DNA of 54,261 nt, the filler included, from Streblomastix strix (Eukaryota): the NCBI GenBank assembly GCA_008636045.1. It is 3 parts of 3 records of this genome, joined end to end, with 100 filler letters (N's around TTAATTAATTAA, not from the genome) between each part and the next. Parts side by side here need not be neighbours in the genome. Positions count along the whole stretch, not along the records: positions 1 to 18,026 come from SNRW01000646.1; 2 more parts are not named here. One strand, given 5' to 3'. The translations under genes were made by a program, and so were the position numbers. Positions 1,173 through 42,539 of this stretch are shown here, in pieces. Each line of letters opens with the position of its first letter. Within the stretch, counting starts at the first letter, position 1. A model generated the notes under the pieces. The model saw only the letters and a program-made list of their open reading frames with translations, was not told the DNA's origin and made no database searches.

Positions 1173-1220
1173 TTATTATACGATAAAAAATGAAAAAATA
1201 AAATAAAAATATTTATTATT

Positions 1221-1520
1221 TCAAATATTTAGGTCTACATTGATGATTTCATATTTTTTAATCAACTCGTTTATTGTTATCAAATCATTAATATCCACAA
1301 TTATTTTTTTAAGTTTTTTAATTATTAATAATTGCATATCATTAACTTTTGAAGCATAATTTGTTTAATTTTATTTATATCTTATTCTTGCATTTTTGCG
1401 TTGTTCTCTTGCAGCAATCGCAGCCTATTCTTTATCAATATATTTCTTTGGCCTTCCTTATTTCGCTGAGGCTGTTGATTCCGTTTATGTTGATTCATTA
1501 ACGGCTTGATTATCTGTCAT
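1221..1520 (-). CDS. Small basic 99-aa protein with AT-hook-like GRPKKY motif (conserved element gene)
   Basis: Intact ORF with TAR=Gln: MTDNQAVNEST...KQGRPKKYIDKEQAAIAAREQRKNARIRY; homologues at 48921 and 40593. Confidence 0.75.
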
Positions 1521-1569
1521 TTATTATAAAATAAAAAATTAAAAAATATATAAGTAAATTTTTATTATT

Positions 1570-2955
1570 TCATTTAAATAAAAACTCTGTAGCATAATAT
1601 TCTGGAATTAATTCTTTATTTTCAATAACATACTTACAATAATATGACGGTATTTTTATTATATTTATTTTATAAAAATGATTCAATAATCGACATAAAA
1701 CATTACCATTTACATATCGAATAAACTCCGCTAACTAATTAAAATTTTTTCTTTATTTCATAAATTTTTATTATGTTTTTTAGAAATCAAGATGTATTAA
1801 AATTATATTTCCAGCCTTAAAAGGTAATATGCCCTGCTATCGTTGTCTAGCTAATTGTCGCTCTAATTTCTTTATTTATGAACGTATATATTATCCTTCT
1901 AAATTTCTTGATAATTGAACTTAATATGGGCTATATTTATTTTGAAACGCAAGATGTGGTGTATTATTATATATACCAAAGACTATTTATATTTATTGAT
2001 TCGTTGAAAATTAATTAAATTTATTACCAAATGCGTTCCTTATTGTTCGAGTTACTGAATCGACTACTCGATTATGATTAGTGAATTTTGAATCAGTGAA
2101 ATATCCATTAATTTTATTCTATGAACAAAACAATGCAAAATACGAGCTATTAAATCCTTTCTCCCCATCTCCACGAATATTATTAACGTAATAATTTTTT
2201 TTAATAATTTTTGCAATTATCCGACTACTTATGCTGCTGATTTATCTATCAATAGATATACCACTAAATATTTTGTATTAATGTTTTCGCAAAATAGATA
2301 TAAATATGCTTTTCTTCGATGCTCTTTAGTATGCTCTCTTATTTCATCTTGTTCAAAGATAGCATCATCATATTCGTCATTATTTTCCTGCAAGTCTTAA
2401 TCGACTGAAAAGACTATGTCTAATTCCCAACTCCCTAACTTTGGAGAGAAGTAAGGTCGTTATAATCTTTATAATGGTTTTAATTTATAATCTTTCACTG
2501 GCAAATATTGATTGTTAGCATATTTATGATTATTTTTTTTCAAACAATTTTAATTTTGTTTTGAAAGGAAAATAGGATAAATTTTTCTCATCACCACCTT
2601 AAACGGGTTCGGATTATTGGCTGGATGTCTAATCCAATTATTTATTTTTCTATTTATTCTTTTATTTTACAGGTTCATATTACATTTAAACTGAAACATA
2701 ATAATAATACCAATCTGCTACCGTTCGCTTTCCAATAATTATTTCATCAGCTTTTTCTACCATTACATCAATATGTTTCTTTTTAGCAATTTTAAAGATA
2801 TTTTTTATGAACTCTGATAGAGTCATTTTATAATGAACTTTATATGCTTTATCATCGATATCTTATTATACTTCAAATTCATATTCTTCTCTTTAATATT
2901 ATTCACCTGCGAAAGTACGAAGTATCTCCTCATACAAACTATTTTCGTTTTGCAT
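1570..2955 (-). CDS. Retroviral-like (rve) integrase of the Polinton; two compensating homopolymer frameshifts (~2535, ~2200)
   Basis: RPYFSPKLGSWELD / NIRGDGEKGF / NHNRVVDSVTRTIR / YNNTPH motifs. Confidence 0.9.
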
Positions 2956-2987
2956 TTATTTCCTGCAAAAATAAAACAATTAAAGGC

Positions 2988-3090
2988 ATTAATGTTTCTT
3001 AATCATTGGCAGATTAGCATAATGGCAGCTATTTTCTATAATAAAGTGAGTGCCCAGTCAAAGTGCCCACCCCCTATGGGCACCTACCAA
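2988..3090 (-). promoter_or_regulatory. Internal copy of the TIR GGGCAC/CCAA cassette just upstream of the integrase ATG
   Basis: ttggcagattagcataatggcagctattttctataataaagtgagtgccc...gtgccc...gggcac is the reverse complement of the TIR unit. Regulatory role is inferred from position. Confidence 0.6.
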
Positions 3091-3119
3091 CTCATTAAAT
3101 ACTTAATTATTAACGCTTT

Positions 3120-6100
3120 TCATTGGGGCTCGATTATATAATTATCAGAACTCAATTATTATCCGTTAATGTAAAGGAATGGAGCACAGCATTGATTTTC
3201 AAGCACAACCATTTTATTATGAATCGATGATAAATCAACTTTATTTATTTATATTTTTGACATTAATTTATTTTTTTAACCGAGAATAATATTTTGAGCT
3301 TAAATTTATTCGCCTTTTAATGATTTTTTGAATGTTTCATCATTTAAATGAACATTTTATTTTTATATTATTCCTTTCAAACAATAATTATAATCCGTTT
3401 CATTTTCATTAGGTAGAGGATTATAAATGTAATGTATTTTTGGAGCTAAAGCAATACGTGCTGTTTCTTCTGCCTCATAACTGACTCCAAATAATTGTTT
3501 ATACTAACCGAAGAATAACGGGTAATTTTTATCGTAAAATTTCTGGTTTTTATGACATATTTAAATTTCTGTCTGTAATCCTCTTCTGGGTTGCTGCTGA
3601 TAGCCCATGTCATCGAATCGGTATCACCACAAATATAGTGCATCCTATTCATATCGAAAGCTTTATACATAAAATTATAGATAAAATTAATATACCAATA
3701 TTTGGAGTTGTCAAGAATGAAATACGCAGAATGGAGGCAGGTGTTGCAGTTGCAGCTTTCAGCATTAAATTACACAGCATATAAATCATCTGTTATTTGT
3801 TAGTCATTAACGAATGAACCTTAGATATGAGACAACCATGTTCTATCAGTGCTCAGCAATTTCGTTTGTGAATATTTTTCTTAATTCATTCCATCAATTC
3901 CATAGCTTGAGTTCATAGCTTATTTATAGAATTGTTTTTTTCCATCATTTTTTTCATTTATTGCCTAAATTCTTTGACTCATAAATTCATTAACAAATGG
4001 ATTGAATCTGTCATGCTTCGAGAATGTTATAACACATTAAATATCGTCAATAATAAAATGAAAGTCATCAATGAGAAGCCATAAATAATAATTATTGAAT
4101 GACATGAATTATCCATGAATCGATGATAAATTTGTTAATTTTCGCTCAATTTTATCATGCTACATATTATTTTTCAAAAGCAGATTATACTTGTATGACC
4201 CTAACGTTTTTTAATCTGTCTTAATATTTATATTTCTTAATATAGGAAGAAAATTAATGAAATCATTTATATGTTATTCGTCGATGTGTCCTTTAACAAC
4301 TGCGATAAATAAAGGAATTCCTTCAACGTCATTAAATCGCAGAGGATTATAAATTAAATTTCTTGCTGTTTATTTATCAGTAATTTTATCTAATAATTGC
4401 CCCGCCACGAACATACGGCCGCCTGTATATTTAATGAACTTATGCGGCTCTGAGCTCATAACGCTGGGATATTAACAATTGATATCAAACGTTAAAAGAT
4501 GGGTCATAATGTAGTCGGTGTCCTAACTAATGACCTTTCCATTAATAAATTTTAATTAATTTATTTTAGTTTCACCTGCAACATTATAGCGATGCATGAC
4601 TTGCGATAATCCTCCAGTTATACCAGAACGTAAAATTTAATAAACTTCTTCATCTGTTATCATCATTGGTAAATTTTTACAATAACATAAATTTTTTTAA
4701 TTATATTATTAATCTTGTTAAATTTTCATCTTTATTTGACTTAAATTTATTGCAGAATAAGCAGCACGGTTTCACGTTATCTGCAGAATGGCCCCTGTCG
4801 TTGTTGATTCTATCTAATGTTGGTGGGTTCTTGCTTGTGAATCGTGCCTTGCATATGTGGCATCCTGTCGATAAGAATATTTTTCTGTAGAACGCACAAT
4901 CTGATTCCTTGATGTTGTTGCTTGTATCTCTATTTCTTCTCTTATCTTATTCCAGATAATTTTAAACTTTAATGTTCCAATAATTTTAAGTAAGCACAAA
5001 TGAAGTATAATTATCTTTTGGCGTATAATCTTAATCCAGTTTGAAGTCCCAATAAGCAAGAACATATTTGATAGCATTAGCGCATGCAGACATCGATATA
5101 ATCTGCAACATGTCAATTTTATAATTAAAGAACATATCGATTAAGTAATCAAGGAGCTTAATCATTAGGCGGGTATCTTGTAGGTTGTAGTGTCGGAGGT
5201 AATCCCAACCATTCGAATAATTCTTAGCTACAGCCAAATAATTTAAATATTTCTCTTCACTTATATTTTTATTTTTAATTGTATTATTAAATGCTTCTTA
5301 GGGAAATGGTTAAGGATTATTTAATATTTCATTGAAATTTTCGTAGTTGATGAATTCATATGGAAACTTTAATTTTGTTGGAATTGCTTACGTTGTTTTT
5401 GGTGTGAAGTCTTTAATGAATTATTTAAATTTCATTTTTGTAGAATAAATCATCGCATCGATGAATCTTAATATAATTCCTGATATGTTATGTTTAACAA
5501 TGATTTATTTAACGTTTGAACCACTACCAAGTTATTTAATGATTTGCCATTCGTCGCTCTATAAATTTTTAAGAATTAGAGCAACATCGAACTTTGAAGT
5601 ATTGAATCCAATTAATGGCTCCTCGTAATGCTATGGTATCGTCTCATCTTCATATTTGTTTGAATCTATAACTTTTCTGGCATCCTTAAACAATTATTTA
5701 ATCCATACGTTTACAAAATTAGAGGTTCGTAAGTCAAAATAAATCGAATAAATGTAAGCGTCAGCAACTTCATCAGAACCAGAAACAGCAACTTCATCAA
5801 CTTTGATTTTTTTATTTTTTATTTTTATTGTGCATGCAATCGAAAGAGGTTCAAGTATTGAAATTTATTTTGAATTATCACCAAATTATTCATTGACGAT
5901 TCTTTCTACGGTTTCAATATTATAAGTTATATAATATTTAGTATGTTTAAATTCATCCTCTCGACCATGCGCCAGAAGATACTTATAGCTAATATTATTC
6001 AATATATGTGGAACGTATGGCCTTGGAAATTTTTCTAAATATACTTCCTTTATTATCTTTCCTCTATTTTTTTAATATTTTTATAAGTGCCTTTTTAGCT

Positions 6101-8051
6101 TAGATTATAAATTTGAGTCTCTGGTTTTATAAGCCTACACCCCACAGATAGGACAATATTTTAAACCAGTTAGTGCCTCAACATCATTTATATAAAAAAC
6201 ATGAGCTGTTTGTAGTTCGTTGATTGTGTCAGTAATTAAAAGAACATTAAAATCTTTAGTTTATTCATTCTGTTCGTTTCTTCTATATTGCTTCTATAAA
6301 TAATAACTGCTTGTGCAAGCCTGCTGATGCAGACTTCCTTAATTGGTTGCTGTTGAGGTTGCCGCTGTTTCTTCATAAGCGAACACATTAATATTTAAAT
6401 TTTTGTTCTAAATAAATTAATCAGCTTCTGTTGTAAAATTAAACCAAATATAATTATCATATATTTTCTTGCCATAGATTCTTTAAAATAATCGTTTAGC
6501 TTCAGCAATACGTGAATGTTCCATATAACGCTTAGCTGCAACTGAACCCTCTGCTTTAATGTCTGGCATCGTAATAAATGAATAAGCTAGAAAGAAACAT
6601 AAATTTTAATTATTTTTTTCGGGGTCAATATATCGAATCTCTCGCCTCATAATGTGCTTCTTTAATGATGGTATTGTTCGACCGCCACCAGCGCCAGCAT
6701 GTGGAAGTCTAAACACTTTAATCATTATTGAAAATATTCCAACTATTTTCTCTTTGATGTCCATGATGGGTTTCTCTTACATTTGAATAATGTGGTTTCT
6801 GATGAATCTTTTATAATCAGCTAAATCTAAGCGAGTGCGTATGGTTGTCGGTGCTCTCATCTCTGTTCTAGCTTCAAAGGGATGATTAATTTTATATGTT
6901 ATTTATTAATCGTTTTCATAGCCATCGACTCGTTCAATAATCACTCCAAAATTAAATGCAATTTTGAATGCAAATTTTTATTCTCGTTAATATTTTTCAT
7001 CTAAATAAGCATCGACATCTTCAATCGTTTTCAAATCATTTTTATAATATTCTTTTGTAGGGCTGATGGTATGAACATAAAATGATTCATATTTTACGTG
7101 TTAATTTTATAAATGTTTTCGCTCAAAATTTATTCTTCTATCATATTCTTATTCGAGTTGTGGCTCACATAATATAATCGTACTCTATAGGACGTTAAGA
7201 GCATCAATTGGCCTAAAATTCTTGCCCTTATTTTCTTCATTAAATTATTTTATTTCATCTTTTACATTTTTAAATACATCCTCGTTTTATTTTTATTTAA
7301 GGTTTATTTTTTATTCTTTAATTTCTTTTAATAATTTTGCATGTCTGGCTCGTTAATCTTCACCTATTTGCTCCCATTCTTGATTGCGCTGTTTGCTATA
7401 TTCGTCTTAAGCGTTCATTTGCTATTTGTTATTCTATTCTTGTATAAATTATTTAGCATAAGATTCACCGATAATTTATTCGTTTTGAAGGCCTTATTGA
7501 ATGTCCTATCTGATGCGTCTTGCAAATGGTTCTGATTATAATATTGCATTTCTAACAATATCTCTATTGTTTCTTCCGTGATTTAAACCGATTTTATCTA
7601 AAATTAATGAAAATTAAGATCTTAATTCGTTAATGTTTATTTTCTATTACATTAGGGTGTCATATAAAAACATTAATTCTCTTATAACATTTTGAGTTAG
7701 TTTTTTATGCCTTAAATCCATTTGATAATCCATCCGCCCTTCGTGAGCTTCGTCCTGTTGTTCGGATTTCAGTTCAGGCGATAACTGGTAATTATGTGCT
7801 TGCATTTATGTAATATAATTCTGCATTTATATCAATTATTATTGCCGTTGCTCCATTTATATTTCAGGCGATAGTTAATAATTACGTGCTTACATTTACG
7901 TAATATAGTCTTACATTTAAGTCATTTATTATTATGTTTATCTGGGCGATTGATGAGGAGGTAAATTTTATGGTAATAGCTCTGGTAATTCTTGAGGCAT
8001 AATCGGAGGCGTGCGTCGTCTTTATGAGTCTTTCCCATATTTATCTGTCAT
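3120..8051 (-). CDS. Protein-primed family B DNA polymerase (pPolB) with long N-terminal extension and inserted Endo VII/HNH domain; a few frameshifts (e.g. ~6445, ~3500)
   Basis: ExoII IGFNTSKFD, ExoIII YNLQDT, motif A FDINCQYPS, motif B KQAMNSSYG, motif C YICGDTDS; CHIC...LDRINNDRGHSADNVKPCCLFCN at ~4750-4870. Confidence 0.93.
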
Positions 8052-8181
8052 TTATTAAAAATAAAAATAAATAACAATTACATAAATAAATTGAATTATT
8101 GGATGGATTGAGAATATTGAAATCATCAATATTCTTCGTTATTGGCACGAAGAAATGGAACAGATAATAAATGACTTTTAG

Positions 8182-8279
8182 GTGTTCCGAGTGTTCCGAG
8201 TGTTCCGAGTGTTCCGAGTCAAAAACTTTTATAAAAAGCTGTGGCCAACTGGACAACTGGCCAATAATTGAGAAACATT
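8182..8279 (+). promoter_or_regulatory. (GTGTTCCGA)x4 iteron-like array followed by CCAA boxes, ~130 bp from the pPolB start
   Basis: Four perfect 9-bp repeats, then aaaagctgtggccaactggacaactggccaataattgagaaacatt, which resembles the second half of the TIR cassette; recurs at 47309. Confidence 0.55.
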
Positions 8280-8301
8280 AATAAAAAATAAATATTCTTA
8301 A

Positions 8302-9420
8302 TCATTGTCTGTTTTAAACGAACTTGTATTTAGCTAAATCGTAAACACCTATTTATTATAATTTATTTGTTAAAATTTGACCATAGTATTACATAGCTTA
8401 TCCAAGTGCTTCCTTAATTCTAGCATCAATATCATTGGCTTGATATAGTTGAGTAATAACTGCAGCTAATTCTTTCTTATACAATCTTTTAGCAGGTGGC
8501 AAAAATTCGTAATCTCCTTATTTTACATTAACTTTATTGCTTCGGTTATATATGTCTATTTTTCCGTCTTATCTTTTTAATATTTCTACTGCAGGAATAA
8601 TAAGAATTGAATTCCATGCAGATACCATTATTTGTTATTTGGTAGCCATTAGCAAATTTGCACCTCCATTTTGGTCTAAGAGTTTTTTGGCATTGAGGGT
8701 GAATGCTCTGAAACTAAAATCCTTTATTTCTCTTACTTTTTGCGGCTTAGTCATTGATAGCCATTTCATGTAAAGGCCGCCTTTTATACCTTATTGTTTT
8801 AATTTTGCAGCCAATGCAGCTCGTTCTAAATCATTAACATCTGAATATTATTATTTCTTCCAATTTCTTTTACGTAAATGTTCTGGGTCGCCAAATCCTA
8901 CTGCTGTTGTATAACCATCGACTGAATAAATTGCGTTCTTTTTCTTATCAAACACAACCACATTATCAGGAGTGGCTACATTATCATCTAAATCTTATTC
9001 CGAAACACTAAATTGTTTGCCTAAATGTTTATCATTTATGTATTGTTGAGCACTGACGGCAGATGATAACCTATTAATTTTCTTAATGTCTCTGTTTAAA
9101 TAACCAACGAGTGTAGCAAGAACATCACCCGCCTCTTATCTAAATTATGGGCCACCATGCTTTCTTGTTCTTTATATCATACTTGGATGGAACGGCAGCC
9201 TACCAAACGGTTTGGCTCTGGATTTCAATCTGTCTTATCTTGTAGCTTGTGATTCATAATAATCGTAATCATCTTCCATTCCATCAACTTCCATCATCCC
9301 ACCTGCACCACTACCACTTGCGCCTTAGCTTTTTTCAGCTTCAAATTCTCTCCTTGCGTTTCTATCTTCTTCATTAATTATTTACTAGATTTGTTATTCT
9401 GATAATGATGATGTCGCCAT
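8302..9420 (-). CDS. Intact 372-aa hypothetical Polinton protein, head-to-head with the ATPase
   Basis: Open from ATG 9420 to TGA 8302 with TAR=Gln; contains DLDDNVATPDNVVVFD...YSVDGY. Confidence 0.75.
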
Positions 9421-9460
9421 TCTATTTATAATCGATAAAAAAAAGTTTTATATAATAAAA

Positions 9461-9795
9461 ATGGCGAGTTTAACATAAAAAGTCGATAATATGTTAAAAG
9501 AAATAATAGTGAATAAGCACGAAATTTAAACAATTATTCATAAAGAGTTAAATTTTACATATAATTCTGTAAATTTATTGATAGGTTAGCGCGGCAGTGG
9601 CAAGACATACAACGTCTTCAAAGAGCTAATAAAATTAAGTTAATTAAAAAAACATTGTTATACTTTATTCATTTACGTCAGCGATTCAAATAATGACACC
9701 ACTTATAAAAAGATGAAGGATTTAATTAAAATTCCAACTAAAATTATTCCATATGCCGAAGCGGATTAAGTGCTAAATGATTTGATATATGCGTA
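9461..9795 (+). pseudogene. A32/FtsK-like genome packaging ATPase, N-terminal part only
   Basis: VNLLIGQRGSGKTYNVFKELI (Walker A) and YVSDSNNDTTY; no Walker B before the sequence switches at ~9795. Confidence 0.8.
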
Positions 9796-9861
9796 TAACT
9801 CTGGGAAGTCAGATAGACCAGCAGCATATAATAATCTTTCATCGATATAAACGTTTGACAT
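9790..9861 (-). pseudogene. 5' stub of a deleted gene (candidate major capsid protein)
   Basis: MSNVYIDERLLYAAGLSDFPELY begins right after the fibre gene and collides with the truncated ATPase. Identity is inference only. Confidence 0.3.
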
Positions 9862-9928
9862 ATATATTCAATAAAAATAAATTATTAATCCAAATAATTT
9901 CAATCAATTATAAACAGAAGCATTATTT

Positions 9929-12835
9929 TCATACAATTTAAAAAGCAGATATTCCAATTGTTTAATAATATGGTCAATTATTCGTATTTAGATACAAAAT
10001 TAACTTTTATGTCCCATTACTATATGCTGCATAATATGTTTGTGAAAATAAATCACCATGTTATATAGAAAATACAAAACTACTTGGCACATATGTGTTT
10101 GGAATTTGGCGTACATTAATATTAAGACTACCGCCTACTGTTATTTCACTTTTTGCATATACTTGAGTATAAAAAAAGTATTATCTTCCAATTTTACAGT
10201 ATTACAATGTGTTAAAATTTAATTATGATGACTTACCCGTGACCGTTGATGTTAAATCTTCAAATCCTCCAAACGAGGACAGCAAGACATCACCTCCACC
10301 AGCCAATAAAACCGATTTATCATCTTTGCCTGTTTTAGCAAATCCAGCAGCATTAACAATTGAATTGAATGTTTTTATGCCATATATCGTTTAATTATCA
10401 TAACGACTAACAAAAGCATTATATATTTCTCCTCTTGTTAAATAATCTTCATTATACTCAGACATTGATAATTCTTCATCATCTCTTCGTAATAATCCAT
10501 GAATTATTTAAAATTCTTATCCCGTTTTCTTCACATAATTTATATCATCAACGCTTCCACTTACGAATTCACTAATTAGCTTAGTGCCACCAGCTCCAAG
10601 TAATACAACAGTATCATCAGCGCCAGATTTAACAAACGACGCGCCTATAATTGTTGCCATTCCATCGATAGAACTTACGAATCTACAAGTATTATTGAAT
10701 GTCTTGTTTGCTGTTATTGTCTATGATGTGTCTAAGGTCATGTAACCACTTAAATCAGCATCATCAACTTCAATTTATGATATCAAATAATCAGTTTCTG
10801 TTTTGGTATAAGTTGTTGATTGATTTGCTTTCAACAACAGCAAAGCGTCATCCTCTCTTTTTGTATATGAAACTCCTGAATTTGCTTTATCATCGAGTAG
10901 ATTATCGGCTTCGCCTTTAGTGTAAGCATCAATCAATTATGTTTTGTCTGCCTTCAATAATAGCAAAGTGTCAACCTCTCCCTTTTTATATATGAAACTC
11001 CTGAATTTGCTTTATTATTTAGCAGATTATCGGCTTCTCCCTTAGTGTATGCATCGATTAATTATGTTTTGTCAGCCTTCAACAATAGCAACGCATCATC
11101 TTATGTCTTAGTGTACGCATCAATTTAATCGCTTACGTTTAAATTTAAATTTAATTTTAGTCTGTTTCAGTTTATGAATATGTTTATGATTTATTATAAT
11201 AGTTTGAAAAATCTACACTTGCATTTATGTCCTATATTGCCTTAACACCACCACCTGCACAAACAACTGAATTGTTATCGTAATTTTAAACAGATATTCC
11301 GACTGAGTGGATAGTTGTATTAAATGTCTTTTAACCTGTAATAGTTTCATCATAGTTAGTCGTTATAAATGAACTGTTTTTCGCAGGTATTAATGCATTT
11401 CCATCAAAAGATAAATCTGTTATTGCATTGCCTCCTCCTGTAGAAGCTCCAAGAATAGTCATGACGTTGCTCATATCTGGCAGTTCTGTTTCTAGTGCTC
11501 GAAGACTAGCACCATCCCACCAATAATCCATAACTTATTTATCAACTATATATAAATATCACCTATTGCTGATTTAGCAACGTTTTCCTAATCTTCCATC
11601 CAAGTGTTCATCTCATCCGTAATCGCAAAGACATATCCTTTTGATTTGCCTGATGCAATATCTCGAACTTCTTATAGTTATGGCTGTGATACTAATGAAC
11701 TTACTAGCATATCACCACCGCCAGCAATAAGAATAGAAGCATCATTTTTATTCCATTTCGATATGCTTGAAACACTTATTATTCCGAATTATTTTTGACC
11801 TGTTATTGTTTGTGCCGAAGTTAAATCAACATAATCTGCTAATTCTGTTTTGTCAGCCTTCAATAATAGCAGAGAATTATCTTCCTATTTATTATAAGCA
11901 TCATATTATTCAGTAATATTTAATTTGTCGTGGAGTAGGGCATCGGCTTCTGTTTTATTGTAAGCATCAATTTAATCGCTTACGTTTAATTTGTCGTCGA
12001 GTAGTGCATCGACTTCAGTTTTATTATATGCATCGATTTAATAAGATATATTTAATTTGTCGTCGAGTAGGGCATCGACTTCAGTTTTATTATATGCATC
12101 AATTAGCTCAGATTTATAAGCCTTCAATAACAGCAACGCATCATCTTCTTATTTACTATAAGCGTCGATTAAGTCAGAAATATTTAATTTGTCATCGAGT
12201 AGAGCGTCGACTTCAGATTTATTATATGCATCAATTAGCTCAGATTTATAAGCCTACAATAACAGCAATGCATCATCTTCTTATTTACTATAAGCATCGA
12301 TTTAGTCAGAAATATTTAATTTGTCATCGAGTAGTGCATCGACTTCAGATTTATTATATGCATCAATTAGCTCAAAAATATATAATTTGTCGTCGAGTAG
12401 GGCATCGGTTTCATTCTTCATGTAAGCATCTATTTAATCGGTTATATTTAATTTTTCATCGAGTATTGCATCTGCTTCCTATTTATTATAAGCATCGATT
12501 TAATCAAAAATATTTAATTTTAATGCTTGCAATTCATCATCTTCAGTTTTCGAATATGCATCAATGAGCTCTGATTTATTAGCCTTCAACAACAGCAGAT
12601 CATCATCTTCATATTTGGTGTATGCATCAATTTAATCAGATATATTTAATTTTTTATCTAACATTTCATCAATTTCTTCACGATTATAAGGTTCAGGAGC
12701 TTCATTAATTATATTTATTAAATTTTCAATATTTTTTATTTCGTTAATAAAGCCAATAGTGTTATACTTACTTGAACCATAAAACACTTAATCATGATTT
12801 AACACAGCATCAAGCATATGCAAATCTCCGTCCAT
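9929..12835 (-). CDS. Fibre/tail-fibre-like repeat protein (mildly disrupted)
   Basis: ~21-aa repeats (DAYNKTEVDALLDDKLNISQI, YTKGEADNLLNNKANSGVS), DYWWDG motif, SFVKSGADDTVVLLGAGG-type shaft repeats; homologue at 41782. Confidence 0.75.
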
Positions 12836-12866
12836 TTTATAAAAATAAAAATAATTTATTATGGCA

Positions 12867-13430
12867 TCAAATTTTATTTAACACTGTCATTAATCCTTTA
12901 GATACTGCACTAATAATTTTGCTTGTTATTTCTCCTAAATCTAAAATACTTGTTATTTTTCTTATTTTTTATAAACAAATTTTATAGCTATCCCTTAATA
13001 AATTTACTTTTTCGACGTCGAGCTTTAATATATTTACGTTTCCAATTAATATCTCATTTAATGTTTATGTTAAATCGCTGCAAAACCTACCACAACATCC
13101 TTCATCCTCTATACTCAATTAAATTTAACTTTCTGGAACGTCAAAAGTGCAAGCATCAACCCCAACCAATTAATTTTCAGGTAAAAATGAAATGCGCTGA
13201 TTCTTTAACCATATGCTTGTCTTCACTAATGATATCTAACAGCCAACGACACATTGAAGGGTCAGGAGTTAAAGTTTCTTCAAATATTGAACTTCTGCGC
13301 CTAGCTGACAACGTGGGCGTTTCACATCTGATAACCTATGCCTGAAATGGGTTGCTGAAACTGGGTTGCTGAAATGGGTTAATTTTTTTTCAAATTATGG
13401 TTCTATTTCTGGAATTGTAGGACTCTTCAT
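12867..13430 (-). CDS. Conserved ~187-aa hypothetical Polinton protein (SxRRRSSIFE), frameshifted
   Basis: ARRRSSIFEETL...LLDII.EDKH..KESAHFI...SKGLMTVLNKI aligns by eye with 41129-41689. Confidence 0.75.
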
Positions 13431-13491
13431 TTTATTCATGTTAAAAATAAATAATTATTCACGTTAAATAAAAATCGATAATTGAATTGAT

Positions 13492-13588
13492 TATAGATTT
13501 GGCATGTGCCCAGAGGGGGTGGGCACTTAGGGTGAGCACTCACTTTATTATAGAAAATAGCTGCCAACCTGCTAATCTGCCAATTGAT
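13492..13588 (+). promoter_or_regulatory. Internal near-identical copy of the TIR cassette between two divergent genes
   Basis: tatagatttggcatgtgcccagagggggtgggcacttagggtgagcactcac...gctgccaacctgctaatctgccaat; lies between ATG 13430(-) and ATG 13682(+). Confidence 0.65.
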
Positions 13589-13681
13589 ATAAATAAGATA
13601 AAAAACTAAAAAAAAAATAAACTTATTTTAAAAATAAACGAGTTTGTTTTATTTAAATTTGATTTTTTTAACAGGTAATAA

Positions 13682-16084
13682 ATGGAAGGCAATAAGAATC
13701 CAACAACTGACTCTAATTTGAGTTCTATTTTATTTGCAATTGATGCTTTGAAATCATCATAAAATGGTTAATAAAACAAACAAATATTTAAATAATTCGA
13801 TTAAATTTATACTTAAACACTTGGCGATAGAATTAGAGATGCAACAACAGATTTATATAATTATGTTAAATTTCCAACGAATAAAAATATTGGATATAAA
13901 TCAGGATAGGCAATAGATATTGCAAAGTTCTAAGGGTTAGCAATTATAGATATTGAAATAAATAAATCATTAAATGATAAATAAAGAAAATAAATAAGAG
14001 ATTAAGTAATTAAACGACTTGGCTAAGTGATTGAACTAATCGGACTTGTTTAAATGGCTCATGGAGGACTACATTTATTTTGTAATTTATACGGTTATAA
14101 TATAAAAAATAATTCATAAATCAAAGTTTATAAGAATGAAAATTATGAGATTGATTTATTTTGTTGCATTAATGAAAATAACATTGGATAGTATAAGCTG
14201 GTTCAACAATTAGAGAATCGACAAATAATGAAAGATAAATATTAAAATATATTGATTTAAATAATTATAAATCTAAATAATTTATGGCCCCTCTTGAGTG
14301 CATATCGGATTTATTAGGTATCGACCTGTAGCAGTAAGTTGATGAAGAAATATCTTATATATCTGATAAAGGAACCACTTAATTATCACGTTCTTATGCA
14401 GAGTTATTAATTCAAGGTATAGAAGGATTAGAGATTCATAATGATGCTTAAAAAAATAGAAAAAGAAATAAGCTTATTAACTTTGTTTTCAGGACTCAAT
14501 GGATTAATTAATTGTGGATTTAATGAAGAAGAGATTGATTAAGCTTATGAAGATATTAAAGAAAGCAATAATTTAACAAGTAATGCAATGGAGTAATGGG
14601 AACAGAAAAGATAAGATTTAATGATAAAAAATTCATATTCAATTTATAGAAAATTATTAAATATCACAACAAATAATATTATGAAAATGTAATATTGCCA
14701 GAGCTCAGAAAATAAAATAATTAAAATAAAAATATAACTGAAATTTAAATATTTGAAATTGATTTACATGATGATTTTAATTTAGTTGATATAAAAAAAA
14801 ATATACAAAGGACGAAGAAGTAATAACGGACCTAACTAAAATAATGCGGATTGTGGAGTCGAGAATGGATTTCATTGTCAAAGCATATGATGTTCATGCT
14901 AAAAGATACATATTGGAACATAAGACATAAGAGGGTATGTCTGATGTTTTAAAAACAATGATGTTATGGAAAGATGGCAAAAAATAATCAACTGTATGGC
15001 ATATATTCGAAAAATATACAGCATTACTTAGCATATAAGGTATAAAATTTAATGAAAAAGAACCTTAAATTTTCTCATTGTTTTAAAGATGGAAATATGA
15101 ACTACTTGAAAAATATAATAAAAATATAATAAAATAATATTTAGATTTAATGTTAAATATTATTTGTTCAGGCGATGAAAAATTATATAATTATGTAATT
15201 AATTGGATAGCTTATATACTTCAAAATGCGGGAAGGAAGACCGAATCATCACTCGTTTTAAAAGGAAATTAAGGCATTGATAAGAACAAATTTGCAGATG
15301 TTTTTTGTGAGCTCATGGCGGGCTACAGCTGCAAAAATTGCACAAATATAAAAGAACTTACAGGAAATTTTAATATAATAGTTGAAGGAAAGGTCTTGAT
15401 TATAGCCAATGAGATGACAAATTTTGGAGAGGATAAACGAGCAAATAATGAAGGTTTAAAATCAATAGAATCCGATTATACAATTAGAATTAATGAAAAA
15501 AATTAACCTCGTCGTGATGCTGAGAACGTAGCAAATTTTATATTCGTTTAATATAATCCTTATCCTGTAAAAATTGAAGCAAGTGATAGGCGATATGTTG
15601 TGCTAAAATGTAGTCCAATTCATAAAGGAGACAGTCAATATTTTAAAGAATTATGCAATAGTTAGGATATCAATTTTTACAATAATTTATTTACTTTCTT
15701 CATGCAATAAGATTTGAAAGATTTTGATATGCGACAATTACCGATGACAGAGGCAAAACGCGATATAATTAAGGCTAGCAAATCATAGATAGAAGATGTG
15801 ATATTGAAGCATTTGGACGAATTTAAATAAGGTGTTCCATGTGTAAGTGCTTCATAATTTAAGCCTGATAATATGAAACAATAATTCTATGAAATTGGAA
15901 TAAATATATATTGCGAACATAAAAAAATAAAAAAATAATCAATTCGTAAATGGTGTTATGAACTAAAACAAGAATATTATGCTTAGTTCGAACTGTTCAA
16001 AGATGAAATGGATAATGATGATGAACTTGAATTTAAACCAATGAAGATAAGCCATAACCATTAGAATAAACATTAGATGTTTGA
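13682..16084 (+). CDS. AEP-type primase (prim-pol) fused to SF3/D5-like helicase; frameshifted
   Basis: LAIIDIE and GLVQMAHGGLHLF (AEP motifs); LVLKGNQGIDKN (Walker A with G>D), LIIANE, KIEASDRRYVV (helicase). Confidence 0.85.
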
Positions 16085-16464
16085 ACTAGCGCAGCAACAT
16101 CCAATAGACTTTATTTTTGGTTCCAGCCATGAGAAATATATAAATGTTTCTCATCTATTGGCAGATTGGCATGTTGGCAGCTATTTTCTATAATAAAGTG
16201 AGTGCCTACCCTAAGTGCCCATCCCCTCTGGGCACATGCCAAATCTATAATTGTTCAATTATTAACGGGATTCACTAACGATTTTTACTAACCAATTCAT
16301 AAGCAAATTTATATATAAATTCATCAATGAATTTATAAATATTATATATTTTATGTTCATTTCACTAATGAATTCACCAATAATTTTAGGTTTCCGAATA
16401 TAATAAAATTCAATAAAATTTTATTTGTTCAAATCCATCAACAAATTCCATCAACTTCACCATG
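16037..16464 (-). repeat. Right TIR (single cassette copy)
   Basis: Reverse complement of 1-700 lacking two of the three tandem units. Confidence 0.93.
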
Positions 16465-16730
16465 TAGTTATGAGAATATGGAGAGTGTCATACGTTCAAA
16501 AATCAATATCATTAATCAATTCATTAATCAACTTCATTAATCAATTCAATTAATCAAATTCAATATTTTCAAACAATAATTTTAATCAAGTAAATATTTT
16601 TATTTTACATTATTTTAAATCCATATTTATTAATTATTATTTATTTTCATAATTTTATATTCATTATTTTATTTAACATTATTTATTTTATTTTTCTATG
16701 TGGGGCACTCTCCATATTCTCATAACTACT
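16464..16730. repeat. Terminal ~267-bp module bounded by 24-bp perfect inverted repeats, ending in ACTACT
   Basis: gtagttatgagaatatggagagtg (16464-16487) vs cactctccatattctcataactac (16706-16729). Confidence 0.92.
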
Positions 16731-17300
16731 GACAAAGCACCAAAAATCTCGAGCCCATAGATGTTTATAAAGCGGTTAAAGTGGAGGATGAGCGTTTATT
16801 GATATTAGCAAAAATAAAAAATTATAATGAATACAAATAGAAATTCAAAAACTGTTTGATAGCAGTTTCAGTTGAAAGATAACGAGCAAAATATATTGTA
16901 GGGTTAGGAATTCTCTAAATTGATTCACGCAGTTCTTTTAAACATTTCACTATAAACAAAATTTAAGGAAGATTATAAATATTGTTTATATTTATTTCAA
17001 GTAGAAAATCAAATATTTAAACTATACTTATCTTTTGCTTAGAAAAAATCTGATCAAACCCCAACCTGTGAAATATCAGAAAAAAAATCAAAATGTGCCA
17101 AGTTTACGACGGAATGGCTGGTGCAGTACAGGCTATAAAAGATGACTACAACAGAGGATTGAAGTATAATTTTCAATAAATAATCTCATTTGATTAAAAA
17201 TCTGTAATTTACTTTTTTTTTGATTTTTCTCAATTATTTAAAACTTTATAGAGGGCTGATGCTTGGTTTGACAGTTGTTGCATTTGCACTATTCGCATGA
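16731..17300 (+). pseudogene. 3' part of a host surface-protein gene interrupted by the element
   Basis: Open frame starts immediately after ACTACT. GT..AG introns; spliced end ...DDYNRGLKGLMLGLTVVAFALFA* resembles a GPI signal. Faint similarity to 29196-30193. Confidence 0.45.
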
Positions 17301-18026: not shown

Positions 18027-18126
18027 NNNNNNNNNNNNNNNNNNNNNNNNNNNNNNNNNNNNNNNNNNNNTTAATTAATTAANNNNNNNNNNNNNNNNNN
18101 NNNNNNNNNNNNNNNNNNNNNNNNNN
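18027..18126. other. Artificial contig linker (Ns + TTAATTAATTAA)
   Basis: Exactly 100 nt with a central six-frame TAA spacer. Confidence 0.97.
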
Positions 18127-18317: not shown

Positions 18318-18720
18318 GAATTATATATATAACTTCATGTACAAATGTCTAGACCGCAAGCGATTTCATTTTGTTCTTGCCGATACTGATTCAATATATA
18401 TTGCTGTAGCAGGAGATTCAAGTAAAGATTGCCATTAATAATTTGATGCAATAATATCAGATAAACAATTCTATGATGAACATGTAAACTAATATTTACC
18501 AGATCCTAAAAAAAAGACATTTATGACTATAAAAAGATATTTGGATTTGGAATAGAAAATGATGGATATTAGCTTATTTCACTAGGACCTAAGTGTTATT
18601 CAATGATTGTACGCAAATGGGACAAAGAAAAATTACAATTTGAATTTAAACCAAAAATTACATCAAAAAGAATAAGTAAGACATAAGAAATATCTCATAA
18701 TGATTATGTTAATGTAATTA
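18318..18720 (+). pseudogene. pPolB C-terminal relic (Polinton family B)
   Basis: NYIYNFMYKCLDRKRFHFVLADTDSIYIAVAGD...LGPKCYS; highly similar to 36523-36920. Confidence 0.88.
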
Positions 18721-20431
18721 ATATATATATTAATTTATTACGACTTTCACAACTAAGATCTAAACTAATTATTACGTATAAATAAAATATCAAAATGACA
18801 AATCAACTTATTCAGAAAACAATTATCAAAAATCATGCACATATAAACACTTCTCCAACTCTTTGCGTAGGATGAATCAGCGTTTCTAGTGGAATAATAA
18901 TTCAGATTAAAACATAATTTAAAAATAATATATTATTTTTATAAAAATGAATTAATAAATAAATAATTATTATAAAAAAAAGTTCAAATACCAGTAATTA
19001 GGATCAAGATCAATATGTGAGCAATCATCATAGTAACTTGAGAAATATTAGAAAAGTATTTGATAATAAAATATATTAATTAAAAAATTTTAAATTTTAA
19101 AAAAAATAATAAAAACAGGCCAATAATTAAATAAAATAAAATACATTCTGAAGTTCATGTGCTCCAAATCAGCTGAAGTGAATTAGCGAACTGAAGGGGC
19201 ATAATTCAAAGTACTCATATGAATTTCAGATGATGTTATACAATTTGACGTTATGCTACAGAAAGTTAACAATCTATAGGTTGCACGGTTTGAGGCTATA
19301 CTACTTGTGGTTAAATTATTTAAAATTCTCGCGGTTTTTGTTTCTTGCAAATTGAACATAAGTTCTATTAAGAAAGCCAGTTTTATGATCAAACGCTATG
19401 AACCTGATTTTAAATTGTAAATTAGTATATACATGGTGGTGGAGAAGTCCATCCGTCGAACTTTTCTACATACTCATAGAAGGCATTTTAATTTATTATA
19501 AATAAGTATGTTTCGTATGATGTCATAGAAAATTTGAATTGCTTGCTTTTATGATTGGAAGTTTATTCATTACAAAATGATAATTTTTATATATATGAAA
19601 ATTGAAAATTTTTAAAATCGTATCATAACTATATGATTTTGATTATATTTGATGTAATGAATATATATTTGTATTATGTATGTAAGATATATATAATATA
19701 TTATATATACACTAAAATTGGAACACTTCTCAAAAACTCAAAAATAGGGAATTTTCCTATAATTTTTTAAAAAGCCAAAATTTTATAATAAATATTTTAT
19801 AGCGATTTCTCTTCTAAAATTAATTATTTTAATAATATATTGTTAGTGCTGGTATAAATAATAATAAATATAAAAGATAAAATTGAAAACTAGAATAAAT
19901 AAAAAATATAAATAATAATAATTATATTCAAATACCTGATGTACGCATGCTCTGCATGTTTCAACTCGTGTTTTTTTTGACCAATTAATAATTTCAGGTT
20001 TATTTTTATTTTCTTTTTATTTTCTTTATCCTTTTCGTTCAACGTTGTTATTCTCTTCATCTTAATTGTTCACTTAATTATTGTCTTACTGCAATAACGG
20101 TTAAGGTTAATCTGGATAGCAAGCAATAATTCTTCTCTAAATTAATAGATGAATATAGAAACAGATAAAAATAAAATTGATTTATCAATTTGAGAAAAAG
20201 TTGAAAAATAAATATTATTTTCGTTATTTCAGTTTTATTTTTTTTGTTATTATTAGTAAAATACATACATATATTTCCATTCTATTAATATGTTTCCTTG
20301 AGTATCTTTCCTGGAAAATCGGGCAGATTGTACTGTAATAAGGAAAATGCGATAACCTCTACATTTCATTACGAGATTACCTAATTATCCACTTAATATG
20401 GACTATCCTTTTTATTGTGAGACAGCAACTT

Positions 20432-21720
20432 ATGGAAATGGGTCCAGTCAACCGAAAAAAGGCAAATATTCATATATGAGCGACTCCACTAAATTGAACT
20501 AAGTGCAATCTCAAAAAGATCCGCCAAGTCAAGAAATACCAAAAATAATACCTGAGACTCAAGGTACCAGCAAGGATATATATTGCAATGCTCTTCATAA
20601 ACATCTATTTTTTGTATAATTAGTAATATAAAAGAAGTTTTAAGCGACGATGATGATTACGAGTCACAACTTAAAGATGAATATATGGAAATAAATTGGT
20701 GTGAGGTCTTCGTGAGTGAGAGAGATGGCGAAGTCTCCGTTCGTTATTGTGTCCAAATTAAAGCGATTGTGAAGGAAAATGCGTATTTTGAATCAGTCAC
20801 TGGACTAGAGTTGCATCATAACTTTTGGGAAATTGAGTCTCCAGAAGATATGAAAATCTGAACAGCTTGTTTTCTATCAAATGCTGCTTAAATTTAATCT
20901 TCCCGCATGATCGAGATAGTATGGTCTTAATCATAAAAAATTATATTCACAAGTCAGGTGAAACCTTCAAGTGAAGTATTCGTACATCATAATATGGTAT
21001 CAATCAGGTGTAAGCGTGATTAAAGCCAATCCGCTGAAAATTCTACTAAGAATTCACAGCAAGCCTAGTTCTAGAAACAGATATAATTGTACTCCAAGTT
21101 CAACTAACTAACTGATTAGATAGTCGAACAAGACCTCGTAGCGACGATTGAAGTTGTATTGAAGAAACAGGTGTCGAAGATAGATGCCTTAAATTATTCT
21201 CTTGAACCGGTTGCTAGACAGAAGCTGTTCGATGAAATTTCTTGGTCTGGAGCTAATATCATCCTCCCTATGCCTGAAATTGGACCCTTACTGAATGAAG
21301 AAGAACAAAATTACGCGACGAGAGCGTTTAAATCCTCTGTTGCAGCGATTTAAGTGAAGACAATGTTAATAAACGATGCAGCTAGAAATGATACAGATAA
21401 CTTGGTAGGGAAGATGTTAAAAGTGTTTGAAACTTCATTAATTTCAGTTTCTGATCATAAAATTGAAAGAGAATCGAGGTTAAAAGGAATATATTAAGAG
21501 CCATAGACTGAAGATGTGCTATCATAACGAACTAAAGAGCGATATTTAAAGAAAACTGGGAAATAAATAATCATTAGAAAAGAAAATTTGAAAACACATT
21601 TGGCAGATGTAGCAGTTAAAATAGAGTAAGAAAACGCCATAGAAAGAGAAACTAACAGTTTGAACAAAGAAGAGGACTTAGTTTAGAGTTTAAATCAAAA
21701 ACTTTCAGATCGAATACTGG
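20432..21720 (+). pseudogene. DIRS ORF1 (gag-like), boundaries approximate
   Basis: Long degenerate coding-like frame ahead of RT (includes supplied ORF 21159-21353). Identity inferred from position. Confidence 0.55.
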
Positions 21721-22719
21721 ATAATATCATATTGATGATATGCACTTTCCCCAGAGCTTCAAAATAACGAACTGATTTCAATCACTTCAAATAATTCAAT
21801 CCAACTTCTATATGCACCGACTTCTATTCAAATTGTATTAAACAATACATCATTGTAAAAATATTTTTCACTCCAAAGCTCAACTAAACAACAAGAAGAG
21901 TTCAAATCAAATTCAACAAAACAAGTATCTCTACTGAATTAGAATAATCAAATATAACAATTGAATATACTTCATAAATAATTAAACAGTAATTCGAAGC
22001 AGTGTGTAGTGAAAATAAATCCTTTGATCGTACAAAATAAATAGCAGAATGAGCCGAAGGTTGGGATATAAAATTTTTTGACCCCGCAAATATATATGAA
22101 TAGCGCGGAATTAAATCAGTGCATTTGGAACGAAGTTCCTTTGACCCTGAATAGATGGCAAAATAAGAAGTAGCGCGTTGGGAGAGAAACTTTTTGAACC
22201 CTACCATATAACATGAATCAACAATAGTGCGTTGGGTGACAATCCCTTTGACCCTGAAAAATAAATCTAGAAGAACGATTAGATGTAAGTTAGAGGATCA
22301 AATCCTGGAATCAATGTACGCACCACAAACGATCTAAACTGTTTGTCTAGCTAATAAGGATCTAGAATACCACAATTTCCAAACATCTCTGAATGACCCA
22401 ACTAAACTTGAGTCAACTTAACCAATTGACATTCTAGCAAAAAGTTAGAATTATTAATAATGCCCAATTTATCAAACCTTGTTAATTTCAAATAAAGATT
22501 AGCCTTCAATCAAACAATAATTATTATACAATAATCAACAAATTATTAATAAGATAAGTCCCAAATCCTTACCATCTCCGATATACAATTAACAAAAAGA
22601 ACAAACTAAAACAGAAATCAAATTTAGAAACAATTTAGAACATCTACTCTTCGAGACTCTCCAGAATCTTTAAATCATTCAATTATTAGAAATTCTTTAA
22701 GTGTCTATTAGTTGGACAA

Positions 22720-24756
22720 TAAGTGCAAGACTAATTCATTTAATAGAAGCATGGAAGCTCATCAAAGAAGACTTGCTTATTACTAGATGAATTAAAGCGT
22801 ATTGGATCAATGAGTAGGCACCTTCAATCTTAGAGTTTAATAAAACTATCCCAAACCAAAGAAAATCTCACTAGTGCGAATATGCGTTAGGACTGCTGAT
22901 TCAGAAAGAACTATTGGAGGAGATTGTGGAAGAAGTTTCATTTAACTAACTAAAATGGATCAATCCCCGTTCCGCAATTTCGAAGAAAGAGTAAGGGAAA
23001 TGGAGAATGATTATCTATTGTTCTCTTCTTAATCAACATTTACTTTCAACAGATTTTACAATAAAGGACATTCAGAGTCTTATATTACTCTAATGATCTA
23101 AAGATTTGGTAACTAAGATCGTAATAGAGTCCGCGTTTCGATATATTTAAGTTAATACAGAATTCAGACCTTTCCTCAGATTCATCTTCAACAACAAGTT
23201 TTTCCAGTATAAAACTATGTGTTACGGGGTCAGACATACCCACTCATCTTTCATAAGACTCTTCGTCCAGTGATCTAATTCATTAGAAAAGTCCTCCAAG
23301 TTAGAATAATCGCATATTTCGATGATGTCATCATTTTACACCAGAGTTTAAAAGAATTTAACTAAATCAAGCACAAAATAATCAGCTAACTTTCGAATTT
23401 CGGCATCAAAATATCAATGAATAAGTCTGTTCTTATATAACAGATGAAGAAACAATTCCTGGGATGGTCAATCGATTCAAATTTAGACTAACTATCATTG
23501 ACAATAATTAGACAAATAAAAATGAAATAGATGTTAGGTAGATGGAGAAGGATCGCAGTTAACCAACGGATGGTAAAAGTAAGAATCTAGGCGAATTTCA
23601 TAGAGTACTTGAACTTCCTGAGGCTCCAATTAAAGAGATGAGGTTTTCATCTGAAGAAATTGAACAAGATTAAATCTAAAGTTGAACTATAAAAGGATGA
23701 AATGCATTAATATCTCTGAATATATAAGTCTTTAAAGTAATCTTCTAGTGGTATTGAATTGTAACGAGAAATAGACATGCTCAAGCAACAATAATTCAAT
23801 CTCAAGGGATCCAAGTGACAGATACGAGTTAGACCTATTGTGGTGCAACGATGAAGCTGTTCTATAATGCACAAGAAGTATGATTTTGGGGCAAATGGAG
23901 TCAAAATTGGCATTTACAAAGTAGAAATTTGAGAGAAGAAGCAGCTATTCCTTGCGCAATTCGCCGTTCCGAGACATTCTTAAAAGAAAAATAAATCAAA
24001 TCACTTAAATTAGAGACAGATAATACATCAACAGCACACAACATCAATCAAGAATCAGACGCAGTACCTCTCACACAGTTGGTGGACAGAACTCTAGACG
24101 TAAATGAGAACTCTTATCTGTAACTTCATTTATTCCAAATTACAGGAGATTCAAACTAGACCCCGGACTCATCTTCAAGATTAGTAAGCTCCGAAGATTA
24201 TTAATTACACAAAGAGGTCTTCGAGGAAACAATTCGAGTGTTGAAGGCTTATACATAAATCGATATGTTCGCGAATAGACCGAATAGGAAGCTTAAATGA
24301 TTCGTTAACATCATAGCGGACAGTTGGATAGTGATACAAGATTGTCTGTCACTCCCATGGATGGGAGAGCTACCATACTTCCATCCTCCGATTCCACTGA
24401 TCCAAGCAACTCTCAACAAAGTAAGAGAAGAGAATGTTCAAGCAATGAAGTTAGTACCTAATTGGCTGTCCAAACCTTGATGGTCGAGTTTGACTAAGAC
24501 AGCATCAAGATATGTCAATTTAGGAAAGAAGGCTGACTTTCTGAAGACGCGCGGTCGAATGAACATAGTAAAAATGAATCTTCCTTCAGGTGAATTACTC
24601 GCAGTTAGGCTAGAGATGATCGAGAATAAGAGTTATTTTAATGGATCTTGTCGAAAAGATAGTTCACAGAAGTTGCAACAGAGCAAGTTATTGAGGGATG
24701 GCATAGTATCTGGAGCAGACATCGATAAAGAATAGGTGAATTTGAAGAGTGTTTGA
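22720..24756 (+). pseudogene. DIRS reverse transcriptase / RNase H / adenine methyltransferase
   Basis: GKWRMI, IIAYFDDVII (RT); VTDTS and LETDN (RNase H); IDMFANRPN and YFHPPIPLI...VPNW (MT). Many stops and frameshifts. Confidence 0.88.
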
Positions 24757-25587
24757 CCAAATCGGGGAAATTTTTGGAAAATCTAACAATAGTGAAAGAT
24801 ACAGAAACTATGAATCCCAACTTTATTGCTCAATAAATTTCAGCTCATGCAACAAATATTGATTCAAACGCGTGTAGAACTGCAATTAGAACGTTGTTCA
24901 GGGTCTAATGCTTCCAAGAAGATAGAACTAATGGATTCGCACTCAAGTAAATAATGAAAAAACCTGTCGCCGCATGCATAAAGAAAAGAAGAGAAGAACT
25001 AATATTAAGTTAGATATTCTTCTAAACCATATTCAAGAAAGAGCTGATATTATGCGAAAACTGAGCGAATAGGAGCATCTTGGATGAACAAAATCTTCGA
25101 TTATGACCTTCTTTACTCTGTGATTAGCTGAGATTCATAGAGTATCAATAGATTAATTTGCGGATAATGTTTGGTAGCTAAGCACATCTATCTGTAAATG
25201 TGATAATTATGACTTAACAGTAACATTTAGACCTCTATTTAATCCGAAAATATACCCAACATCTTGGCTTAGCAGTCAGATCGCGTTAAGAAATGAAGAG
25301 GATCGAAACAAACCTCTATGGTTGCGACCTAAAAATAATAAAGTTTCTTCCAATGAGATACCTTTTTAAAGTTACATATATAATCATGGAAGTATCTGGA
25401 GTATTGATGGGAAATTCGGTCACATTAATACGTATATCTTTAATAACTTAAAAATAACGATTAGGGAGTAACAATCCAAGAGATCAACAAGGGATCTAGT
25501 CTTAAAGATGGACCTAGCACAGTAGCAGTACATTATGATATGATATTAAATGATACCATAAGATTGACAATAATAAACTTTGAATGA
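24612..25587 (+). pseudogene. DIRS tyrosine recombinase
   Basis: Overlaps the MT ORF in another frame. IMTFFTL*LAEIHR (catalytic Arg position now TGA), SVTLIR, STVAVHYDM. Confidence 0.75.
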
Positions 25588-25589
25588 TA

Positions 25590-25691
25590 TTACAGTTTCA
25601 CAGTAAAAATGTAGTCCAGATTAAGTGGATGCTAGATAATTTCGTAATGAAATGTAGAGGTTATTGTAGCTATCCACGTATCTGGAATACT
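25590..25691. repeat. DIRS internal complementary region (ICR)
   Basis: ~25590-25664 is the reverse complement of ~20352-20425; 25663-25691 is the reverse complement of 26143-26171 (one mismatch). Confidence 0.9.
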
Positions 25692-37110: not shown

Positions 37111-37137
37111 ATTTATTATTTTTTATTTTAATCTAAA

Positions 37138-42525: not shown

Positions 42526-42539
42526 TGCTCATTTATTAT

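Follow-up and report, generated by a model that had tools for sequence, protein, structure and literature searches.

Why should a mobile element carry the sequence of its own tip twice at one end, the second copy inverted and lying some distance inside the first? This question is raised by two Polinton-like element ends in the DNA analyzed here. To our knowledge, the exit of Polinton/Maverick elements from the chromosome and the recognition and copying of their ends have been modelled only and never shown. A matched, inverted copy of the tip is a concrete element that can be tested in this respect, consisting of one 25- to 28-nt site in two copies with a defined spacing.

Source and genetic code of the analyzed DNA

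The window (the whole stretch of DNA that was analyzed, 54,261 nt) consists of three pieces of 18,026, 18,023, and 18,012 nt separated by linkers at 18027–18126 and 36150–36249. Each linker has the composition N44-TTAATTAATTAA-N44, and the sequences flanking a linker are not adjacent in any genome. The GC content over the window is 20% to 38%. Counting ORFs of at least 150 aa gave 2 with genetic code table 11, 3 with table 4, and 72 with table 6. Because long ORFs are open only under table 6, we read this DNA with TAA and TAG as glutamine codons. The window sequence occurs in public read sets labelled termite gut metagenome, and the closest integrase-like proteins bear the organism name Streblomastix strix. 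Polinton-like insertions with TAA/TAG encoding Gln are described for this termite-gut oxymonad in the portion of PMC10120064 available to us.

The pieces behind both linkers begin within PolB fragments, and 18319–18723 is approximately 85% identical to 36523–36925. An RVT_1 reverse transcriptase (22955–23641) is located in a 5.3-kb stretch (20352–25664) with 72-nt inverted repeats of 86% identity at its bounds, and this stretch may be a retroelement with inverted ends. A host ORF of 943 aa (51432–54260), open at the end of the window, contains many GGGI/GGAI-type repeats and had no match in Pfam.

Two Polinton-like elements, each with one visible end

The first element, element A, shows the following features:

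1–16730: Polinton-like element A, with one end visible (right, helicase side)
1–325: left terminal inverted repeat of A, truncated where the piece begins, 2 nt into the mirrored inner arm (see below); the left module lies outside the window
1573–2822, minus strand: integrase-like gene, in two reading frames
3380–8750, minus strand: protein-primed PolB ORFs (PF03175)
8302–9420: ORF of 372 aa
9050–10042, plus strand: Walker-A ORF with weak ATPase and terminase matches (E 0.016–0.03)
14790–16100, plus strand: D5/DUF5906-type helicase (PF19263, E 3.1e-14), adjoining the right end
16140–16462: right terminal inverted repeat of A, inner part, mirror of 1–325 and directly adjoining the inner arm

Comparing 1–325 with 16140–16464 gave a terminal repeat of 325 nt at 98.5% identity, with 5 mismatches at positions 125, 214, 224, 258, and 323 of the left arm. 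This repeat and the AGTAGT/ACTACT termini place A with the Polinton/Maverick elements by its ends, its left tip lying outside the window, and the protein-primed PolB agrees with this assignment, the PF03175 match on 3377–4729 (minus strand; E 6.3e-6, 25.8 bits) being equal to the cut-off. The NSSYG and DTDS motifs were seen in the PolB translation. The integrase-like gene had 28 homologues, the best (E 9e-56) carrying the UniRef name "Integrase catalytic domain-containing protein", and no Pfam match at E ≤ 0.5. No capsid or protease family was found in A by Pfam, the sole signal of a capsid module being the weak Walker-A ORF.

Long fibre-like proteins made of 22-aa repeats (66-nt period in the DNA) are encoded at 11474–12886 and 9977–11071 (minus strand). 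A GC-rich unit of 137 bp that contains palindromic GGGCAC motifs occurs at 226–637 (3 times), 2988–3122, 13502–13638, and 16140–16274, that is, in the terminal repeats of A and at two internal intergenic places. Of the 17 copies of GGGCAC in the window, 16 lie within element A, and one of these 16 is in the outer-arm flank. This unit may be a regulatory or binding module.

The second element, element B (44772–49727), is a 5-kb fragment containing an integrase-like gene and the C-terminal part of PolB, whose PF00136 match is below the cut-off:

44772–49464: body of element B, inverted fragment, approximately 82% identical to A 1246–5578

Because B is inverted relative to A, its module is on the integrase side, while the visible module of A is on the helicase side. 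The preliminary description had spoken of two visible termini; both are real, but they come from two different elements with one end visible each.

A second, distant Polinton-like gene set is located at 36250–44786. Its proteins are 35% to 50% identical to those of A and its gene order is different, comprising the C-terminal part of PolB, an HNH endonuclease (37636–38343), an integrase-like gene, a fibre-like gene, and a DUF5906 helicase. Relatives of the fibre-like repeat proteins of A are found at 41800–42320. AGTAGT-type ends for this set were looked for (fragments 40380–41340 and 42280–42760) and none was recognizable. The integrase-like gene is in two frames both in A and in the distant copy (38740–40457), split at different places, suggesting frameshifts that arose independently, errors in the assembly, or short introns.

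The terminal unit and its inverted arms

Each visible end is formed by a unit of two inverted arms and a spacer:

16463–16490, plus strand: inner arm of the right end of A, an inverted copy of the terminus whose base 1 is T, not A
16491–16702, plus strand: spacer of the A module
16703–16730, minus strand: outer arm, the true right terminus of A (plus strand ...CATAACTACT; from outside AGTAGT)
49465–49491, plus strand: inner arm of B
49492–49700, plus strand: spacer of the B module
49701–49727, minus strand: outer arm, the B terminus

The unit spans 268 nt in A (16463–16730) and 263 nt in B (49465–49727). In both, the AGTAGT terminus (read from outside as AGTAGTTATG...) is repeated in inverted orientation over 25 to 28 nt, approximately 240 nt inside the true end. 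The presence of an inverted copy of approximately 25 bp of the terminus inside both visible ends, as noted in the preliminary description, was thus confirmed: in A, 24 of the first 25 bases agree between the arms, the sole difference being base 1, and in B 25 of 27 agree. At position 16488, C is the dominant variant in public contigs, with which the A arms match over 28 nt. Weaker similarity between the arms reaches approximately 37 to 43 nt, with 84% identity over 43 nt for A and 86% over 37 nt for B. The flanks specific to each arm, which had been given as inner CATAC and outer GTGRGGCAC and as conserved across the elements, were as described, reading (T/C)CATAC at the inner arm and GTG(G/A)GGCAC at the outer arm (plus strand) in A and B alike.

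The A and B units are homologous over their full length (75.6% over 279 columns) and have the same orientation. Conservation is concentrated in islands: the inner arm with approximately 10 further nt (70% to 80%) and the outer approximately 155 bp (75% to 90%), with the inner spacer (45% to 60%) and the inner flank (approximately 40%) being poorly conserved. The inner half of the A spacer is made of 13-bp repeats (16501–16562) that are not conserved with B. Its outer half contains about 6 copies of a 13- to 14-bp unit (16599–16688) that are 75% to 90% identical to B, in which the outer half of the spacer holds about 6 copies of TTTATTTTCATTA (49602–49682). Immediately inside the inner arm, TCCATCAAC is present twice in A (16434–16455) and once in B (49450–49458); it is the only conserved piece of the inner flank.

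Chance occurrence, predicted folding, and matched differences of the arms

Local inverted repeats were searched as 27-nt stretches with at most 2 mismatches, 100 to 400 nt apart, using 60 composition-matched block shuffles as control. Such repeats were found at 3 places in the window, namely the two units and an AT-rich foldback at approximately 50.1 to 50.3 kb, and in none of the 60 shuffles. The AT-rich foldback (50079–50296) is unrelated: it has 68-nt arms, 90% complementary and 82 nt apart, without AGTAGT, and lies approximately 350 bp outside the B end. An HMM built from the four arms matched only those four within the window (E ≤ 4.4e-10; next best E = 5). The AGTAGTTATG motif alone was not enriched in the window (7 matches against 5.0 expected), and Rfam over 16000–17100 gave no family at E ≤ 1. 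The unit is not due to chance.

When folded as single-stranded DNA, each unit was predicted to form an arm-arm stem, with −32.8 kcal/mol (z = −6.8) for A and −26.1 kcal/mol (z = −5.7) for B, and none of 200 shuffles was as stable. The earlier proposal that each end can fold its own panhandle therefore holds as a matter of predicted energetics, the local stem being feasible in both units.

We also compared the arms position by position. At arm positions 11, 15, and 17, A and B have different bases, but within either element the two arms match; the unmatched positions are 12 and 23 in B and 1 in A. In the covariation analysis, 3 pairs had changes in both partners, and pairing was found in 51 of 56 cells, versus 36% to 55% when the partner was slid. 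In the shuffle control, the observed value was reached in 61 of 500 cases, which is the floor for two sequences (about 1 in 8). Of the claim that the arms coevolve, the matched differences at the three positions stood. These sequence comparisons are suggestive of coevolution, and weakly so because they involve 3 positions in only 2 elements. A shared binding protein would predict identical arms just as well as pairing would.

Evidence that the unit belongs to the element end

The two arms give the unit the appearance of a small element that could have landed in a larger one, and the preliminary description had considered that it might be excisable or invertible. Several observations bear on this. 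The 98.5% terminal repeat of A extends up to the inner arm and abuts it exactly. The flanks of the units carry no 6-bp duplication (TCACCA/GACAAA in A, GGCGTA/AACAAC in B), i.e., neither unit has a target-site duplication of its own as a miniature inverted-repeat element (MITE) would.

Logan contigs of four runs (X1 to X4, from three samples, of which X1 and X4 may be the source sample) were placed on 15900–17300, with stretches that had no coverage in X3 and X4 left out of account. Depth is given as a sum over contigs, possibly from several organisms, and is not a copy number. In X1, the sequence immediately internal to the inner arm had a summed depth of 92,003, the inner arm itself 583,156, the spacer 97,421 and 82,481, and the outer part approximately 491,000 and 272,000, against 17.6 in the unique flank beyond 16745. 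On the internal side, the depth dropped to 21 to 30 only farther inward, at 16229–16322. In all four public read sets, the summed depth did not fall across the inner arm. The abundant sequence thus runs approximately 120 bp through the inner arm and does not end there as a solo mini-element would. The inner boundary is spanned by one contig that extends 35 letters to one side of it and 103 to the other. The X1 depth of the unit (50,000 to 583,000) compares with 1,500 to 4,000 for the helicase gene, and this excess of the unit was seen in all four runs; the A end is common to far more sequence than the adjoining helicase gene. The unit is also present in contigs of two further studies, X2 (196 contigs placed) and X3 (82 placed). 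At the outer side, 3 contigs of X3 and one 749-nt contig of X4 continue from 16730 exactly into dissimilar sequence, so that the element truly ends at 16730, next to several different flanks.

Scanning for the arm pattern gave no match in a viral contig collection and 5 loci in metagenome contigs, of which one (L003) was the sole true copy. The other 4 were rejected as GC-richer chance matches, and none of the 6 loci found in genome contigs was true. With the paired-arm pattern, the viral contigs gave 1 match, a chance one inside a coding sequence, and the 15 stretches matched in these contigs as helicase-related loci yielded no confirmed case. The four-arm HMM found no solo unit in the remaining approximately 37 kb of the window. 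In L003, the tip is 100% identical over 56 nt and borders another flank; the contig ends 53 nt into the unit, leaving 29 spacer bases visible. The stop of L003 and the start of the first window piece would both be assembly breaks at the repeated unit. An explanation of the latter by k-mer logic was tried and discarded, as the first left/right mismatch is at 125 and the L003 overlap is 56 nt, so no single k fits. L003 was also considered as the missing left flank of A; no matching 6-bp duplication was seen (…AACATC against GACAAA… in the right flank of A), although L003 need not be the other end of A.

Because the module is present at the helicase side of A and at the integrase side of B, both intrinsic ends of the family carry the unit, as would be expected of a part of the terminal repeat; one and the same element probably has it at both ends. 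Altogether, the continuity of the terminal repeat, the presence at opposite intrinsic ends in the same orientation, the lack of a duplication, and the depth through the inner arm indicate that the unit is an integral, conserved, outermost part of the element end and not a MITE that landed there. The idea of an excisable mini-unit was not supported, as neither unit has a 6-bp duplication and the summed contig depth is equal inside the inner arm and in the spacer. That of an invertible unit fared no better: the spacer had the same orientation in A, in B, and in the 29 bases of it visible in L003, which are the 3 copies open to observation, and a strand change at joints was seen in none of the 13 joints listed for the four runs, bearing in mind that contigs drop rare variants.

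Possible functions of the inner arm

What could an inverted copy of the tip do at this place? We tentatively favor, at somewhat short of an even chance, that the approximately 265-bp unit, with its inverted 25- to 28-nt arms outermost in the terminal repeat, provides in its inner arm a second copy of the end-recognition sequence that lets the 3′ tail of the displaced strand fold back locally. Once displaced or looped out, a single strand would pair its 3′ tail with the nearby inner arm, and this pairing would rebuild a duplex end for the protein-primed polymerase and possibly also for the integrase. With such a local foldback, the other end, 16 kb away, would not need to be found, and either the pairing or a shared binding protein would keep the arms alike. 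Formation of the stem in vivo, a role of the unit as origin or end marker, and maintenance of the arms by pairing or by a protein are thus putative parts of this reading. The tip consists of AGT in tandem (AGT AGT), a 3-nt repeat that fits the short terminal tandem repeat that has been tied to protein priming (PMC4196379, in the part accessible to us). Several findings count against a foldback: the terminal repeat of A (at least 590 bp) could form a classical two-end panhandle, the loop of the foldback would be approximately 215 nt, B retains two uncorrected mismatches between its arms, and the inner arm of A has lost base 1 of the terminus. A bolder version, in which each end would be a self-sufficient foldback origin whose 3′ tail snaps onto the internal copy, this copy also serving as the master template for a damaged tip, seems doubtful to us. 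If the foldback origin were true, it would offer a first sequence-level handle on how integrated Polintons mark and replicate their ends.

Alternatively, the inner arm could be a second duplex binding site for the protein that binds the tip, either the integrase or the terminal protein-polymerase, in a looped complex that involves no foldback. Many DNA transposons have several transposase sites per end, and the outer spacer array with its approximately 6 units of 13 to 14 bp resembles such multi-site ends. That the inner arm is a conserved island amid poorly conserved sequence favors this explanation as well, and the 3 matched positions fit a coevolution with the specificity of one protein. 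However, an inverted second copy would be unusual for such a site, the IR/DR ends of Sleeping Beauty having direct copies. As far as the sequence data go, binding to duplex DNA would fit equally well as a foldback, and we regard it as possible, if on the unlikely side. If the arms covary across many subfamilies, they would give a means to pair nonautonomous derivatives with their autonomous partners.

A different origin is implied if the unit is a MITE-like mini-transposon derived from the two ends of an ancestor with short repeats, two copies of which would cap the large elements or make composites of them; in that case the inner arm would be an inside end that serves the movement of the small unit and not of the large element. 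The unit does have the complete form of a mini-element (AGTAGT...ACTACT, 263 to 268 bp), its depth is far above that of the helicase gene in all four runs (in X1 by the values given above), and two assemblies break at it, L003 53 nt inside and the first window piece 2 nt into its mirror. But neither unit is flanked by a duplication, the depth, which is not a copy number, shows no drop at the inner arm (92,003, 583,156, and 97,421 along X1), the remaining 37 kb of the window hold no solo copy, and the elements without the unit would have no AG...CT ends, so that we consider this origin unlikely. If the unit were merely such a cap, the finding would be an ordinary one, yet it would explain why host assemblies break at these ends. 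We give still less weight to a flip-flop or self-priming hairpin end, in which the inner arm would serve as the priming site for the 3′ end or the spacer would be flipped by a recombinase. The complementary arms with their stable predicted stem and the HNH nuclease gene of the distant relative in the window would suit it; it is made very improbable by the single spacer orientation and the unchanged strand at the joints (contigs drop rare variants), by a spacer that is not palindromic, and by the protein-primed polymerase that the elements encode. That the repeat arose by chance or as an assembly artefact is barely credible: the source does resemble a short-read assembly breaking at repeats, but no shuffle produced such a repeat, two diverged copies have the same architecture, and the repeat is covered by contigs that were assembled independently from three samples, with one contig extending across the inner boundary. 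Returning to the foldback terminal unit, it likely helps the enzymes of the element itself to recognize or copy the ends.

Comparison with known element ends

Polinton/Maverick elements have terminal inverted repeats of 100 to 1,500 bp, for which a racket model is given (PMC4196379 and PMC10748475, in the parts available), and the first of these sources, again in part, ties their short terminal tandem repeat to slide-back in protein priming. For protein-primed PolB replicons, according to the accessible part of PMC4046053, it is the accepted view that a panhandle of the terminal repeats acts as the origin. The elements described here resemble Polinton/Maverick elements in their 5′-AG...CT-3′ ends with AGT twice, in a long terminal repeat made up of the unit and at least 325 nt of 98% identity, and in having a protein-primed PolB and an integrase-like gene. 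In the literature searched, which was accessible in part and with the 2006–2007 founding papers and the supplements outside it, these repeats are described by length and AG...CT ends only, and no inverted copy of the tip inside a Polinton/Maverick terminal repeat was found. The Streblomastix strix Polinton-like viruses (Bellas et al. 2023, PMC10120064) share the genetic code and the termite-gut host, and the main text of that paper, as far as accessible, gives terminal repeats as present or absent without internal anatomy. The unit is an unusual end design, with no described Polinton carrying an inverted tip copy in this partially accessible literature.

The unit can also be set beside other classes of mobile DNA. 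Composite transposons of the Tn5/Tn10 type have outside and inside ends. Like these and like MITEs, the unit has two inverted copies of an end, so that outer-outer, outer-inner, and inner-inner pairs are possible in principle. Unlike them, it has no gene and no duplication of its own and is only the outer part of a longer repeat, and unlike with MITEs, the contig depth does not indicate that solo units dominate. In Tc1/mariner elements with IR/DR ends, for example Sleeping Beauty, each end holds the binding sequence twice in direct orientation, approximately 170 to 240 bp apart. Two copies per end are found here too, but the arms are inverted relative to each other, and two direct site copies per end were not found.

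The closest parallel to a foldback is bacterial. The linear replicons of Streptomyces are capped by a terminal protein, and their 3′ end is thought to fold onto the arm of an internal palindrome. Similar to these telomeres, the elements described here would combine a protein-primed or protein-capped replicon with a tip that pairs with an internal arm. The Streptomyces telomeres differ in being bacterial, in having several short palindromes in approximately 170 nt, and in their unrelated proteins, whereas a single pair of 25 to 28 nt across approximately 215 nt is present here. If the foldback origin were true, the terminal unit would be a eukaryotic counterpart of the telomere foldbacks of bacterial linear replicons.
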